IMG/VR virus record: IMGVR_UViG_2565956624_000022
Location: 1-28,080 of that record
Length of the DNA: 28,080 nt
Origin: a virus
Lineage: Duplodnaviria > Heunggongvirae > Uroviricota > Caudoviricetes
Direction: 5' to 3' (one strand)
How positions within the stretch are numbered: the first letter of the stretch is position 1; each line of letters begins with the position of its first letter. This document shows positions 13,199-18,571 of this stretch, in pieces. The notes beneath the pieces were generated by a model that was given only the letters and a program-made list of their open reading frames with translations, ran no database searches and had not been told where the DNA came from. Both the position numbers and the translations under genes were made by a program.

Positions 13199-13413
13199 AG
13201 TACCCGTTCATGGAGGAGGAGACTCTTCCGGCAAAACTCGTTAGCCCCGTAAACGTCACACCATCAATGAACGCCATTATCTGTTCAGGAAAAGCCACTT
13301 ATACCGATTTGCAGGAACGGTTATCTGTTCGTGATATGTATAACCTTCTGGAAATTATCTCGGTGGAATCATTTAACAAGCGGGTCTGGAATAAACATCA
13401 GGAGCAGCGATGA
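13177..13413 (+). CDS. -1 frame extension of the tail assembly chaperone (gpGT-like product)
   Basis: The -1 frame is open from the slippery site at 13174-13180 to 13413 and abuts the tape measure start; classic G/GT arrangement. Confidence 0.45.
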   Translation, partial: FNDRRRVKYPFMEEETLPAKLVSPVNVTPSMNAIICSGKATYTDLQERLSVRDMYNLLEIISVESFNKRVWNKHQEQR

Positions 13414-15224
13414 TTATCAATGAGTTGGCCTACAAGGTCACAATTAAGGCCGATGAATTCCTGAATGGAAAACGGAAAGTAAAAGATGAAGTTAGTAAAT
13501 TAAACAAAGATCTTTCCAGGGCTGAGAAGGAAAGGCTAAAGGAACTTGAAAAACAGCGGCAGGAAACGGAGAGGTTCGGTAAAACCGCTGTTTCAGCTTT
13601 CCGCAACGTGACAACAGCAGCCGCTGGATTTTTGGGAATTGGCGCCGGGTTGTATGGAATTAAGCAACTTTTTACATCTACTGCCAACGAAATTGTGAGG
13701 GCCAGCCAACAGGCCAAGTTTTTCGACTCTGATGTTAATAAGATGTTTGGTGTTCAGCGGGGATTTCGCCAGGCTGGTCTTAACGGTGACTCGTTCATTT
13801 CATCTTCTGGGAATGCCAGAATGGCTTTGGCAAATATTGCCGATCCGACTGTTATGGGAGGGCTTACTGGCGCTGCCCAAAATTTGCTGATTCTTGGAGC
13901 TCGTACCGGATTAGATATCAATAAGCTCGGCGACCCAAACAAGGCTCTTGCTGAGTTTTCTCGCTATGGCAAGACTCATTCTCAAGAAAACCTGATGCAG
14001 GTGATGGCTGCCGCAGGGTTCGATCCGACAGATGCCGCTAAAATAAAATCAGGGGAACTTAAGCAGCTTGTCGATTCAGAAACAAAGAAATCCCGTATTA
14101 CAGCACAGCAGGTAAAAGAGCAGGAGAAGGTTGCTGCCACTCTTGGGCAACTTGATTCAGAGTTTTCCCGATTAAAGCAAAATTTAGCCATGGCATTCGC
14201 TCCAGACGTTATTGACGGGATGAAGGCTTTTGGTTCCTGGATTGAGAAACATCATGGCGACATCATTGGCTTTTTCAATGACGCCGGGAATATGACTAAG
14301 CAATTCACAAAGGCAGTTGGTGGTGCGGAAGAGGCTCTGAAGCTATTGGCAGCAGCATATGTAGGAAGCAAACTTACAGGCGGCGCCCTTCCTCCATGGT
14401 TAGCAGGGTTAATAGCATATGGTTTGTATCTCTACAATGACAGGGAAAACATTGAGGGTGCTGCTAAAGGATCGTTTGATTACTCTAAGCGTGAACTTGG
14501 AGATACCATGCGCAGCATGGGGTTTGATACCGATTTTGGGCGTAGAGGCGATGAGATTTATGGCAATAACATTCAGCCAGATATCCCTCTCCCTGACGGA
14601 GTAAAGCCAGTAAGCATGGATTCTCTCCTTGATGCCATTCGTGAGGTGGAATCGAGCGGTGGCAAAAAACTTTATAGCCCGAAAGGTGCTGTTGGTCCGT
14701 ATCAGTTCATGAAGGATACTGCCATAGCGTACGGGTTAAAGGTCGGGGATGGGATTGATGAGCGTCTTGATGAAGTGAAATCTCGCGCTGCTGCTGAAAG
14801 GTTCATGAGGGATTTGCTAAAGCACTATAAAGGCAATGTTAACCATGCGCTGATGGCTTACAACTGGGGGATGGGCAATGTAGACAAAAAGTTAAAATAC
14901 ATATCCAGTACCGGGTTTGATTCACCATCATCCAAATACTGGAACACCCTGCCGAAAGAAACGCGAGAATATGTACCAAAGATTCGCGCCGCTCTTAATG
15001 CAAAAGAAAACGAGACGCTGGCTTACTATCAGCAGCAGCAACGCATCGCCTCAACACCAAACCAGACAACATCAAAAATTGACAACAGCCGTAGCAGCAG
15101 TACAACTATTGGCACGGTAGTTGTTAACAGTAACCCGACAACAGTTGATGCTCTTACCAGAAGCGTCAATCAGCAAGTTAGCCGGGCGTCAACAAACGCG
15201 GCATTTTCCAGTGCAATGCCTTAG
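13410..15224 (+). CDS. Tail tape measure protein with C-terminal lytic transglycosylase (SLT) domain
   Basis: 604 aa; coiled-coil N-terminus (EKERLKELEKQRQETERFGK); SLT-like motifs (AIREVESSGG...GAVGPYQFM...ALMAYNWGMG). Confidence 0.65.
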   Translation: MIINELAYKVTIKADEFLNGKRKVKDEVSKLNKDLSRAEKERLKELEKQRQETERFGKTAVSAFRNVTTAAAGFLGIGAGLYGIKQLFTSTANEIVRASQQAKFFDSDVNKMFGVQRGFRQAGLNGDSFISSSGNARMALANIADPTVMGGLTGAAQNLLILGARTGLDINKLGDPNKALAEFSRYGKTHSQENLMQVMAAAGFDPTDAAKIKSGELKQLVDSETKKSRITAQQVKEQEKVAATLGQLDSEFSRLKQNLAMAFAPDVIDGMKAFGSWIEKHHGDIIGFFNDAGNMTKQFTKAVGGAEEALKLLAAAYVGSKLTGGALPPWLAGLIAYGLYLYNDRENIEGAAKGSFDYSKRELGDTMRSMGFDTDFGRRGDEIYGNNIQPDIPLPDGVKPVSMDSLLDAIREVESSGGKKLYSPKGAVGPYQFMKDTAIAYGLKVGDGIDERLDEVKSRAAAERFMRDLLKHYKGNVNHALMAYNWGMGNVDKKLKYISSTGFDSPSSKYWNTLPKETREYVPKIRAALNAKENETLAYYQQQQRIASTPNQTTSKIDNSRSSSTTIGTVVVNSNPTTVDALTRSVNQQVSRASTNAAFSSAMP

Positions 15225-15281
15225 TCACCTGTAACGTTTTCTCTGTTTGTGCCTGTTGACTGAAGTCGGACGGTAAAAATG

Positions 15282-15307
15282 AAAACCCACCGTCAGGTGG
15301 GTTTTTT
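15282..15307. terminator. Bidirectional Rho-independent terminator
   Basis: AAAA-ACCCACC-GTCA-GGTGGGT-TTTTT: A-tract / perfect 7-bp stem / T-tract; between the convergent tape measure (+) and Mnt-like (-) genes, overlapping the latter's stop codon. Confidence 0.7.
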
Positions 15308-15613
15308 GTTTAGCAGTTCTCTCAACTTTTCGTTCTGCTCTCTGAACTTTTCCTGTATTTCTTTTTGCATGGCGATAACCTGGGCTTGAAGTTGAACTAG
15401 CGCATCAACATTTAGCGGAACCGAGACGCTGTTGATTTTATCTGCTATTTCCCCAAGAGTATTTTCTGCATTCAAGGCATCTTCCAGTATCTGCACAATC
15501 TCTGAGTTCATTGATCTGCCGTTTCGTTTGGCTCGTTCAGCTATAGCATCTCGCATCCCGTCAGGGAAACGCACAACAAACTTTTCGTAATCTTTAACCT
15601 GCTTTTCAGCCAT
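15293..15613 (-). CDS. mnt: Ribbon-helix-helix repressor, P22 Mnt-like
   Basis: 106 aa; N-terminal FVVRFPDGMRDAIAERAKRNGRSMNSEIVQILEDAL matches the Arc/Mnt RHH signature (NGRSMNSE); C-terminal coiled coil; divergent from an Arc-like/Ant pair as in P22 immI. Confidence 0.7.
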   Translation of the reverse strand: MAEKQVKDYEKFVVRFPDGMRDAIAERAKRNGRSMNSEIVQILEDALNAENTLGEIADKINSVSVPLNVDALVQLQAQVIAMQKEIQEKFREQNEKLRELLNKKPT

Positions 15614-15632
15614 AACATCACCTCAAAAAAAA

Positions 15633-15693
15633 CAATGATGGCATATTGCTATTTATATTCAATGATGGCATATTGCTTTCAAGGCATAATGCC
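15633..15693. promoter_or_regulatory. Divergent promoter/operator region
   Basis: Two identical 18-bp direct repeats CAATGATGGCATATTGCT (15633-15650 and 15660-15677) plus an 11-bp palindrome GGCATAATGCC (15683-15693) sharing the TGGCAT half-site, between two divergent RHH genes. Confidence 0.6.
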
Positions 15694-15715
15694 ATTACGT
15701 AAAAAGGAGTGATCA

Positions 15716-15877
15716 ATGGAAAAGAATGAAGTGAAGACAACTCTTCGGTATCCGTACCGTTTTAAGGAGGAGGTGAAACGCATCGCTAAGGAAGAGGGGA
15801 TGTCAGAAAACTCAGTGTTGGTTCAGGGACTTGCTTGGTGGTTGAAGTACCGGGAGAAAATGCGGAATGCTCTCTAA
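15716..15877 (+). CDS. arc: Small ribbon-helix-helix regulator, P22 Arc-like
   Basis: 53 aa (MEKNEVKTTLRYPYRFKEEVKRIAKEEGMSENSVLVQGLAWWLKYREKMRNAL); AAGGAG 7 nt upstream; beta-strand then two helices as in Arc; directly upstream of an antirepressor; too short for the ORF track. Confidence 0.55.
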   Translation: MEKNEVKTTLRYPYRFKEEVKRIAKEEGMSENSVLVQGLAWWLKYREKMRNAL

Positions 15878-15948
15878 AAATAACGAAGCCCCGACAGCGG
15901 GAACTGGCGAGGCTTCTACATCAACAAATCTGATCGGGAAATATTGAC

Positions 15949-16827
15949 ATGAAAAGTATAGCAAAGGCACAAAACGATTTCACCATCTTCAAATTCGGCG
16001 ACAGTGAAATCCGCGTCATCAACAAGTGCGGTGAGCCGTGGTTTGTAGCAAAAGATGTTTGTGATGCTTTAACCCTGACTAACTCACGCAAGGCGCTTAC
16101 TGCACTTGATGACGATGAGAAGGGAGTAACTTTAAGTTACACCCTTGGTGGTGAGCAGAATTTAAGCATTGTGAGCGAATCAGGTATGTATACATTGGTT
16201 TTGCGCTGCCGCGATGCCGTCAATAAAGGTTCAGTCCCGCACAAATTCCGCAAGTGGGTAACAGCAGAAGTTCTGCCTTCAATTCGCAAATATGGCGAGT
16301 ATGTGAAAGGCAAGAAAACCACAGTTGAGGAAAGAACACCGCTACGCGATGCAGTAAACATGCTGGTAGGAAAGAAAGGACTTCGCTATGACGATGCATA
16401 CAATATGGTTCATCAGCGTTTTGGTATTGACAGCATTGATGAACTTTCAATTGAACAAATCCCGCAAGCCGTAGAGTACATCCACAGGGTAGTGCTTGAA
16501 GGTGAGTTCATTGGCAAGCAAGAGAAGAAAGCAAACGAGCTTTCTGCAAAAGAAGCAAACAGCCTTGTATGGTTATGGGATTATGCCAACCGCTCACAGG
16601 CATTATTCCGCGAACTGTATCCGGCATTAAAACAAATTCAATCGAACTATTCCGGCAGATGCTACGACTACGGCCATGAGTTTTCGTATGTTATCGGAAT
16701 GGCGAGAGACATTTTAATAAAACACACACGAGATGTTGATATCAATGAGCCAGACGGACCAACGAATCTTTCCGCATGGATGAGACTTAAGAATAAAGAA
16801 TTACCTCCTTCAGTACATAACTACTGA
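15949..16827 (+). CDS. ant: Antirepressor, Bro-N domain family (Ant-like)
   Basis: 292 aa; N-terminal [30 protein letters not shown] is a classic Bro-N signature; downstream of the Arc-like gene. Confidence 0.8.
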
Positions 16828-16845
16828 CAGATAAACAACGCAACG

Positions 16846-16869
16846 ACCCAGCTTCGGCTGGGTTTTTTT
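16846..16869 (+). terminator. Rho-independent terminator (copy 1 of a repeated terminator)
   Basis: ACCCAGC-TTCG-GCTGGGT followed by TTTTTTT; near-identical to the terminator at 17715-17739. Confidence 0.7.
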
Positions 16870-16937
16870 ATACCCAAAATTCACCGTGTCCACGCTTAGG
16901 TAATGAGCTTGAAGGAGAGCACTACACAAAAAGTGTA

Positions 16938-17483
16938 GTGCAAAAAGCGAACAAAACTTCGATGGTTATCATTGAGATGTCAATCAAGCAAGCATTGCGA
17001 GTTGCCGCTCGCGAGTCAAAAGCCGTTCGCCGCTCACTGGTAGACCAACTTGAAAGTATGCAAGAAGCGCACATTAAAAGCGGTAAATCAGCGAGTGGAC
17101 TTGTTGAGTATCGTCAAGCGCGAACATTGAAAATGACGGTTGAAGCTGTTACCAATCTGTTCGATCTGATGCCAAATCTTGCGCCTGAGGCAAAGCAGAC
17201 AGCGGCAGCAAGTATAATCAACCCGCTCGTTGGTTTTAATGCAATACCTCTTCCGGCAATAGAAGAGCATTACTACTCAGCAGGGGAGGTTGCAGAGCAG
17301 CTTGGAGTAACGGCCAACAAGATTGGTCGCATTGCTAACGCAAACAACATCAAAACTGAGCAGTACGGGAAGTTCTTCCTGGATAAATCGGCGCATTCCA
17401 GCAAACAGGTGGAAGCATTCCGCTACAATGCGGAAGGTGTTAAAGCACTACAACACCTGATTCATGGGAGTAATGTTGCATAA
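16938..17483 (+). CDS. Hypothetical protein, possible DNA-binding protein
   Basis: 181 aa; GTG start at 16938 (AAGGAG at 16912-16917; alternative ATG at 16962); C-terminal stretch YSAGEVAEQLGVTANKIGRIANANNIKTEQYGKF looks HTH-like; no family recognised. Confidence 0.55.
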   Translation: MQKANKTSMVIIEMSIKQALRVAARESKAVRRSLVDQLESMQEAHIKSGKSASGLVEYRQARTLKMTVEAVTNLFDLMPNLAPEAKQTAAASIINPLVGFNAIPLPAIEEHYYSAGEVAEQLGVTANKIGRIANANNIKTEQYGKFFLDKSAHSSKQVEAFRYNAEGVKALQHLIHGSNVA

Positions 17484-17704
17484 TGGCAAAGAAAAAATAT
17501 GGCATTATGCCGCCAAGAATCAAAGGAAGAGCCAGGGTAAAAGGCGATGCTGGGAGATATCACATTCTTGGTGTTTTGTGGCATGAGAGAGCTTTAATTT
17601 TAAGCAGACCTCATGGGTACATTGAAAAGGTATCTATAGATAGAATTGAGATTCTTCCCCTTACTCCTGAAGAAGAAGAAACGTACGGACTTTTTGATAA
17701 CTAG
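17483..17704 (+). CDS. Hypothetical small basic protein
   Basis: 73 aa; start overlaps the upstream stop (TAATG); basic N-terminus; no family recognised. Confidence 0.5.
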   Translation: MAKKKYGIMPPRIKGRARVKGDAGRYHILGVLWHERALILSRPHGYIEKVSIDRIEILPLTPEEEETYGLFDN

Positions 17705-17714
17705 CCAATTCACT

Positions 17715-17739
17715 AAACCCAGCTTCGGCTGGGTTTTTT
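17715..17739 (+). terminator. Rho-independent terminator (copy 2)
   Basis: AACCCAGC-TTCG-GCTGGGTT followed by TTTTTT; same stem-loop as 16846-16869. Confidence 0.7.
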
Positions 17740-17755
17740 GTTTAATGGAGAGTAG

Positions 17756-18571
17756 ATGGGCATAATCGATTTAAACACAGCAGACATATTCAATGCTATC
17801 GGTGGCGGCTCTCCGCTTTCGATTATCGACAGCGTTCTGCATCCCCAGTATGTGATTCGTGACAGGGAAACTGGCGAGGTTGCTCTTGAGTTCAGTGGTA
17901 TGGCATCCGTGCAGCCAAGTGGCAGGGCGCAAATAACAAACGCTCCGGTGGAGAAAGGGAAATACCAGTCCATCAACAAAGTTAAAGAACCCGCCAGGGT
18001 AAGATGCGCAATCATCGTAAATGGTCTTACTGGTTTTTCCGGCAATATCCCGAATATTTTCGATCTCACATTCACAAGCCAGAACAGCACGCTGAACACA
18101 ATCAAAACGATGCTGTCCTCTGCAAAAACATACGATATTGAAACGCCAAAGGAAACTCTGGAGAGTTTCGACCTTGTTGACCACTATTACGAAGTTAACT
18201 CTCAAAAAGGGGTGACTCTTCTGACGGTTTATCTTGATTTTCAGGAGGTCATTCAGCAAATGGAAGTTATTCTCTCTGGATCTCAGTCAGAACAGAAGCC
18301 AACGGATAACAATAAGTCACAGGGTGATGTAGGAGTTGATCCGCAAATAACCAATGGCGGAGCCAGGGAATCTACTGTCGATGAGCTAAGTAAATCATGG
18401 TCATCACTGAAGTCATCTGTTGGCGAAATCACTGGAAAAATCTCCGGCACAATAAAGACTGAATTTCAGAGTGCTCTTGATACGGTGTCTAAACCAATAC
18501 TCGAAGTTACAAACAGCGCAACAAAAAAAGCGGCAGATATTGCAAAAAATATAGTTAAGGCGAGTACATGA
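17756..18571 (+). CDS. Putative tail/baseplate protein
   Basis: 271 aa; GGAGAG RBS; first gene of the distal tail module; position-based. Confidence 0.45.
   Translation: MGIIDLNTADIFNAIGGGSPLSIIDSVLHPQYVIRDRETGEVALEFSGMASVQPSGRAQITNAPVEKGKYQSINKVKEPARVRCAIIVNGLTGFSGNIPNIFDLTFTSQNSTLNTIKTMLSSAKTYDIETPKETLESFDLVDHYYEVNSQKGVTLLTVYLDFQEVIQQMEVILSGSQSEQKPTDNNKSQGDVGVDPQITNGGARESTVDELSKSWSSLKSSVGEITGKISGTIKTEFQSALDTVSKPILEVTNSATKKAADIAKNIVKAST

Follow-up and report, generated by a model that had tools for sequence, protein, structure and literature searches.

Whether two neighbouring genes that lie between copies of one transcription terminator form a mobile unit is the question raised by positions 16846–17739 of a 28,080-nucleotide stretch of viral DNA (Caudoviricetes; IMG/VR record IMGVR_UViG_2565956624_000022, positions 1 to 28,080). 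This whole stretch is referred to as the window, and all coordinates are given within it. A first-pass annotation, made from the letters of the DNA, had described the interval as a two-gene cassette and, in view of its terminators, as a mobile moron. It was found that the interval is indeed accessory, moron-like DNA, with an empty site in a sister prophage and co-occurrence of the pair elsewhere, but the terminators are not the borders of the pair and one of the two genes is a pseudogene. We consider the interval to be the partly decayed distal end of a P22-type immI ('ant moron') module located in a hypervariable cargo site, with a probability of roughly 80%. The description as a mobile moron bracketed by its own terminators is mostly wrong.

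As delimited mechanically, the first open reading frame (ORF) comprises 181 codons from a GTG start (16938..17483, plus strand), and its TAA is overlapped by one base by the ATG of a 73-codon ORF (TAATG). Both frames exist as described, but the first does not represent a complete gene. A profile search matched it to phrog_1726, a family labelled 'anti-repressor' (9.7e-81), over profile positions 76–264 of 264 only, while full-length homologues from other Escherichia coli prophages and from phage JEP4 are 241–242 residues long and cover positions 1–264. A set of 5.8 billion proteins contained 859 relatives, nearly all of 241–248 residues among the 120 matches listed, with sources that include Escherichia, Salmonella, Serratia, Pantoea, Morganella and Proteus. 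Protein alignment reveals that the ~62 conserved residues at the N-terminus have no counterpart in the window copy. In nucleotide alignments, the full-length genes are homologous to the window from ~16893–16911 onward, and the ribosome-binding site and ATGACTTTTAAG... start of the relatives are absent from the window. No ATG, GTG or TTG is found in frame from the upstream stop (16818–16820) to 16938. The NCBI annotation pipeline PGAP calls the ORF 'incomplete; missing N-terminus'. Profile, alignments and annotation thus agree on a 5'-truncated pseudogene at 16893..17483 (plus strand), and the 181-codon ORF is the remnant of a gene for an antirepressor-like protein of 241–248 residues that has lost its start codon, its ribosome-binding site and ~62 residues.

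An AlphaFold model of a full-length relative with 97% identity (predicted local distance difference test score, pLDDT, 70.6) consists of three parts: an N-domain of beta-alpha-alpha-beta-beta-alpha topology (residues 17–109), a middle part composed of helices and, at the C-terminus, a winged helix (helix-helix-strand-strand-helix, residues 176–241). In this AlphaFold2 model the truncation falls within the N-domain, with the loss of the first strand, both helices and one hairpin strand. Foldseek matched the predicted C-domain to the DNA-binding domains of RacA, MerR-family proteins and Tn916 Xis (probability ~1, template modelling score to target ~0.7, E ~0.15), and weak HTH_17/HTH_31 matches cover residues 110–140 of the 181-residue ORF, in line with the helix-turn-helix (HTH) suspected near its C-terminus in the first-pass annotation. 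The N-module and the C-module are found apart, with other partners, in many genomes, and in some relatives a Rha domain replaces the N-module. Scans of both proteins of the pair and of the full-length homologues against Pfam, NCBIfam and PADLOC gave nothing above threshold, only weak HTH/excisionase matches. Sequence-profile searches of the PDB with both alignments gave no matches, and literature searches on the SPC32H antirepressor and on the 'ant moron' retrieved nothing specific to the 242-residue or 73-residue proteins.

The second gene (17483..17704, plus strand) is real, intact and clearly under purifying selection: between six E. coli and phage copies, synonymous divergence (dS) reaches 0.22 with nonsynonymous divergence (dN) of at most 0.012 (dN/dS ~0.03–0.13). 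The encoded 73-residue protein matches phrog_4977 over positions 1–73 of 73 (5e-54). Hence the earlier statement that neither protein matches a nameable family has to be withdrawn; as to regulatory families, the first ORF falls in one labelled antirepressor, but the second in one of unknown function. The fold predicted for the 73-residue protein is a beta-barrel of the SH3/Tudor/KOW-like type, to which a basic N-tail and an acidic C-terminal helix are attached (pLDDT 88). It is basic overall, as had been noted (isoelectric point 9.4), but its charge is bipolar, with ~+9 over residues 1–45 and ~-6 over residues 46–73.

Close relatives of the 73-residue protein form only 8 clusters, and an exhaustive HMMER scan of 1.84 billion representatives returned 10 matches at E <= 1e-3. 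A profile search retrieved 42 proteins in Serratia, Klebsiella, Salmonella, Citrobacter, Pseudomonas and Vibrio, none of them named or with a Pfam domain, and the C-terminal extensions of the longer relatives have no Pfam match either. Distant relatives (30–47% identity) reside in mixed accessory settings: a Klebsiella podovirus-like prophage, a Serratia prophage beside an ORF6N antirepressor, a phage early region, a Salmonella island with TIR, SLATT and toxin-antitoxin genes, and a Vibrio element beside HigB. No constant partner emerged from the neighbourhoods of the distant relatives. Such company, together with the lack of a known function, is what a moron with a role in phage exclusion or anti-defence might be expected to show.

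Several database copies of the 73-residue protein (P0003, P0004 and P0006) have frame-shifted N-termini that begin at the A-run AAGAAAAAATATGG (window 17483–17540), either through homopolymer errors in sequencing or through genuine slippage. From VKGDAGRY onward, the conserved core of these copies is unaltered.

Co-occurrence of the pair was surveyed in 5,426 complete E. coli genomes, of which 144 match the cassette and 54 contain at least 80% of it. The 73-residue gene is likewise present in 54, and because both counts are 54, it always lies directly behind the 242-residue gene, with a one-base stop/start overlap that is identical in all inspected loci. About one third of the genomes with the 242-residue gene (KCJ3K291, for example) are without the 73-residue gene. 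Among 50,697 phage records, the 73-residue protein is encoded by JEP4 only. The close form of this protein is therefore always beside an antirepressor-like gene, in 54 E. coli genomes and in phage JEP4. That the pair recurs in this way could be taken in favour of a mobile cassette, but in E. coli the 73-residue gene never occurs without the 242-residue gene, such that its behaviour is that of an operon member, not of an independent cassette. Of the 5,426 genomes, only that of the source prophage has the truncated left junction.

The terminators themselves are as had been reported. The 23-nucleotide sequence ACCCAGCTTCGGCTGGGTTTTTT is present exactly twice on the plus strand of the window, at 16846–16868 and 17717–17739, with no third copy at up to 3 mismatches and 0 chance matches expected in shuffles, even with 3 mismatches. 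Both copies scored as intrinsic-terminator-like in a terminator scan (8–9-bp GC-rich stem, UUCG loop, 6–7 T), and their predicted folding energies are -14.1 and -15.6 kcal/mol (z = -3.5 and -4.5). This 23-bp direct repeat around the cassette is what suggested a self-contained unit. Comparison with other loci points elsewhere. The sequence of copy 1 (16846..16868), which closes the ant operon, also follows ant in P22-like phages by alignment, and is annotated as a rho-independent terminator in phage Emek. Copy 2 (17717..17739), which closes the module directly upstream of a baseplate gene, precedes this gene in all examined relatives of the prophage backbone, whether ant, the 242-residue gene or the 73-residue gene lies upstream; in KCJ3K291 it follows the 242-residue gene without the 73-residue gene. 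In the P22-like prophages JEP4, MS10495 and MDR_56, another hairpin, which lacks a T-tract (CCGCCAG-TGTGCTG-CTGGCGG), lies ahead of the pair, and a convergent mnt-type gene with a separate hairpin lies behind it. Because the pair has other flanks in these P22-like prophages, the two terminators are not its own borders, contrary to the first description; they belong to the context, and the left copy probably arrived together with ant.

The sequence to the right of copy 1 offers an explanation of how the arrangement arose. Alignments with P22-like prophages define a junction segment at 16870..16958 (plus strand), of which 16870–16887 match the sequence that follows the ant terminator of P22-like phages, while from ~16888 on it is a remnant of codons ~45–70 of the 242-residue gene. 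Many P22-like prophages have the same 89-bp piece, without annotation, as a scar that separates the tailspike gene from the ant terminator. Further to the left, window 15200–16290 is ~98% identical to myovirus relatives, and 15885–16958 is 95–96% identical to the P22-like prophages BEN2908 and MB06171. To the right, the full-length pairs in MS10495 and MDR_56, both P22-like prophages, match 16911–17708 with 98.1–98.5% identity, and the backbone resumes from 17716 on. The last two homology tracts overlap at 16911–16958. The simplest history would be homologous recombination inside this shared 48-bp stretch, which surrounds a hairpin, between different ant-moron variants, with a P22-like 'ant + terminator + scar' segment as one parent and a 'full gene + 73-residue gene + terminator + baseplate' segment as the other. 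One such event would yield both the 5'-truncated gene and the second terminator copy.

The block left of the cassette follows the P22 immI layout known as the 'ant moron'. At its left edge lies an Arc-family (Mnt-like) ribbon-helix-helix repressor of 106 residues (15293..15613, minus strand; Pfam Arc 1.6e-19; PGAP 'Arc family DNA-binding protein') with its own terminator hairpin at 15282–15305. Divergent from it, a small Arc-like ORF of 53 residues (15716..15877, plus strand; weak Pfam Arc match, 0.0038; a coding sequence in the source genome) opens the ant operon. Ribbon-helix-helix repressors of the Mnt/Arc type are thus present, and their control of ant is putative. The divergent promoter region between the two genes (15633..15695) holds operator-like repeats, read from the sequence as two copies of CAATGATGGCATATTGCT and an inverted GGCATAATGCCAT, which by their position would act as operators; an inverted repeat was also listed there by a repeat search. 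The antirepressor Ant itself (15949..16827, plus strand; 292 residues) combines Bro-N and P22AR_C domains (Pfam Bro-N 5.6e-20, P22_AR_C 5.4e-29) and matches phrog_245 'anti-repressor Ant' (3.6e-111). Between the arc-like gene and ant, in the position and on the strand of sar in P22 immI, a match to this antisense RNA was detected at 15881..15947 (minus strand; Rfam RF00262, 28.5 bits, below the gathering score of 43, E = 0.0059), and antisense control may thus have been retained in this myovirus-borne module. The name 'ant moron' was given to this accessory late-operon region of P22-like phages (Villafane et al. 2008, PMC2629481), which is described as "in a state of rapid flux", several of the phages having genes there that are degraded or truncated (PMC2629481).

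One sequence from the operator-like region recurs further right: the exact reverse complement ATGGCATTATGCC of a 13-mer from the 15633–15695 repeats is located at 17499–17511, in the first codons of the 73-residue gene, where it encodes the conserved YGIMP. This copy is part of an 11-nucleotide inverted repeat around the start codon of that gene, the fold of which is not above shuffles. A candidate hairpin sequestering this start codon (17478–17510) was dropped, as it was no better than shuffles (z = -1.1).

The host of the module was identified by comparison with complete genomes: window bases 15200–17800 are 100% identical to E. coli FDAARGOS_1288 (NZ_CP070007.1). The prophage is of the myovirus type; in the RefSeq annotation of that genome it is neighboured by ybhB-bioA and encodes terminase, portal, capsid, a DUF3383 sheath-type protein, an SLT-domain tail protein, baseplate J and gtrA/gtrB. 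The PGAP order around the cassette is tail genes, Arc, ant, the pseudogene, the 73-residue coding sequence and baseplate genes. The module is hence placed inside the late (virion) gene cluster, with the SLT tail gene (13410–15224) to the left and the baseplate genes to the right, and does not itself contain a virion gene. The first gene of the baseplate region (17756..18571, plus strand; 271 residues) forms the right border of the variable cargo site.

This backbone is rare (21 of the 5,426 E. coli genomes), and its tail/baseplate cargo site (window 15225–17755; also L001, L002, L005, L092 and L093) is a hot spot with at least six cargo variants, 1.7 kb to more than 3.1 kb in length. The contents across backbone relatives include Arc-, HTH- or LexA-type repressors, genes with P63C and Panacea domains, tail-fibre fragments and ISVsa5. 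In a sister prophage the site is 'empty', and one terminator occupies the corresponding position. Like a moron, the cassette is found at this position in some phages but not in their close relatives.

Several observations weigh against the proposed reading. The designation of the 242-residue family as 'antirepressor' derives from the PHROG label, the UniRef name, weak similarity to the Ant C-terminus and the position of the gene, and the antirepressor activity of the parent family is thus putative. The remnant ORF runs over 181 codons without frameshift or internal stop and is 97% identical to a full-length relative; it must therefore have arisen very recently or have remained under some selection. 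Widespread in Proteus/Morganella-type prophages is a 168-residue version that was truncated independently, and the C-terminal fragment could thus be useful. The scan for sigma-70-like sites on the plus strand of 15600–17750 found none, but it was insensitive and missed the expected ant promoter too. As regards the order of events, the scars could alternatively descend from a 5' deletion like that of the window, the 181-codon ORF being a remnant either way.

In an alternative reading, the C-terminal ~168–181 residues (helical middle and winged helix) are made from an internal start as a functional short isoform, for example as a stand-alone regulator or dominant-negative partner, with the hairpin and an upstream GGAG as part of its expression signal. 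Such a product would be consistent with the intact remnant ORF, with the occurrence of N and C modules apart, and with Met75, which is nearly invariant in the 242-residue family. In phage P1, Ant is made as two in-frame products. The Proteus-type case adds to this: in contig L091 (2340–2510), a separate 5' truncation of the family lies just upstream of the hairpin, behind a different terminator, and the resulting 168-residue ORF is common, being listed in 42 index blocks of an assembly collection (23 contigs read). The candidate starts in the window are nevertheless poor, as none in frame has a usable Shine-Dalgarno sequence. The GGAG lies 21 nucleotides before GTG 16938, a codon that is itself within the hairpin stem; ATG 16962 has no Shine-Dalgarno sequence, and at ATG 16977 a GAG abuts the codon directly. 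Moreover, full-length genes hold the same internal sequence, such that nothing is specifically gained in the window, and PGAP calls the ORF a pseudogene. We therefore regard a functional short isoform as unlikely.

Under the preferred reading of a decayed distal end of the ant module, the cassette would be transcribed as a passenger. Because the insensitive scan recognised no promoter in it, it would be reached only by read-through of the first terminator, either from the ant promoter or by antiterminated late transcription. The 16 bp behind the second terminator contain no promoter for the baseplate genes, and late transcription must therefore cross both terminators. In P22, late transcription is antiterminated, and the same is presumed for transcription through both terminators of the window. 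Because the upstream gene would be untranslated, the 73-residue gene has probably lost normal translational coupling; it has its own GGAG 13 nucleotides before the ATG. GC content is 0.41–0.49 across the cassette and 0.40–0.48 in its flanks, and hence displays no compositional anomaly.

An autonomous mobile moron, a self-contained cassette that carries its terminators, inserts into phage operons and benefits the lysogen, is highly improbable despite the empty site, the direct repeat and the recurrence of the pair, given that none of the three loci examined outside the backbone has the pair between these terminators, that the first gene is truncated in one genome only, and that neither a promoter-like site (by the insensitive scan), a deviant GC content nor a PADLOC match of note was found.

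The segment in which the recombination is placed contains a hairpin of some interest in its own right. A perfect 9-bp inverted repeat, GCACTACAC-AAAAA-GTGTAGTGC (16919..16941, plus strand), lies inside the pseudogene and corresponds to codons 56–64 of the parent gene, with a minimum free energy of -15.9 kcal/mol (z = -5.4). A hairpin of 9–10 bp is formed by these codons in each of the 29 distinct homologues compared at the DNA level, which represent at least 10 enterobacterial genera; homologous positions are found in L002, L003, L005, L017–L027 and L048–L073. The outer arms vary between CAC/GTG, ACC/GGT and TTT/AAA, and the inner parts between ACAAAAAGT, GAAATTTTC, AAAATTTTT, GAAACTTTC and AAAAGTTTT, changes that rewrite seven codons (HYTKSVV, TYTKSVG, FYKIFVK, HYEIFVV and others). 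Across these sequences 91.7% of cells are paired, compared to 27–52% in slid controls, and 7 of the 10 pairs have double-sided changes. Covariation amounts to 0.515 versus 0.167 in shuffles, with 0 of 500 shuffles reaching the observed value.

The scars of P22-like prophages retain the hairpin while their flanks diverge, and do so with two compensated alleles, CAC..GTG and ACC..GGT (LR-64-1). In the Proteus-type truncated copy the 21-nucleotide hairpin unit is tandemly duplicated, and in both E. coli and Proteus the hairpin adjoins the 5' breakpoint of independent truncations. A function as terminator was ruled out since there is no T-tract on either strand. No Rfam match was obtained at E <= 1, and wobble pairs gave contradictory assignments of the strand. 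We tentatively suggest, as a possibility short of an even chance, that ant-type modules may have in this hairpin a cis-acting RNA or DNA element under selection. The hairpin could be the target of an antisense RNA, a nuclease or a protein, or a preferred recombination joint between module variants. If it is a cis element, the 73-residue SH3-like protein would add one more uncharacterised component to the operon in which it lies.

Beyond the module, a gtrA/gtrB-type O-antigen glucosylation cluster with a 491-residue third gene is located at the prophage end (24407–27155, minus strand, and 27604–28080), where the RefSeq annotation of the source genome places the host genes ybhB-bioA alongside, and a tail-fibre-assembly pseudogene fragment at ~24080–24205.

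As a variant of the fast-changing ant moron region, now in a myovirus-type prophage, the locus adds little to what is known of that region. It does illustrate that duplicated terminators around genes are, alone, no evidence for a mobile cassette, and it suggests that short conserved joints, such as the terminator and the 48-bp hairpin segment, let unrelated phage morphotypes exchange regulatory cargo. The covarying hairpin in a coding region and the narrowly distributed, strongly conserved 73-residue SH3-like family are by-products worth follow-up.

A comparison with known systems places the cassette as follows. With classical morons of the HK97/lambda type (sensu Hendrix/Juhala) it shares presence or absence among relatives at one site and an intrinsic terminator behind it. 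In contrast to these, which have their own promoter and terminator, no own promoter was detected in the cassette (by a scan that was insensitive), its terminators are shared module joints, it lacks a compositional signature, and one of its genes is a pseudogene. The full-length pairs of E. coli prophages and of phage JEP4 (JEP4_17, annotated 'KilA protein', and JEP4_18) are 93–98.5% identical to the window cassette in nucleotide sequence, have the same one-base overlap and likewise lie downstream of an ant-type gene in an immI-like operon. They differ in having a complete 5' end, with a ribosome-binding site ahead of the start, where the window copy is without ~62 codons. They also differ in their flanks, with the upstream hairpin that lacks a T-tract and, in P22-like phages, the convergent mnt downstream, compared to two ant-type terminators in the window.

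The closest parallel is P22 immI (Villafane et al. 2008, PMC2629481; Sauer et al. 1983 via that paper). Both are accessory modules within a late operon, both have an Mnt/Arc-type ribbon-helix-helix repressor divergent from an arc-like gene and ant, and in both a terminator follows ant. The window also has a sar-like antisense match, which does not reach the gathering score of Rfam. In both, gene content changes fast between relatives and degraded genes are common. In P22-like podoviruses the module is located between genes 16 and 9, whereas in the window it lies in a myovirus-type tail/baseplate cluster, flanked by the SLT tail gene and the genes of the baseplate. Furthermore, the window module extends beyond P22 immI by an extra distal unit, the remnant of the 242-residue gene with the 73-residue gene, and by the duplicated terminator.

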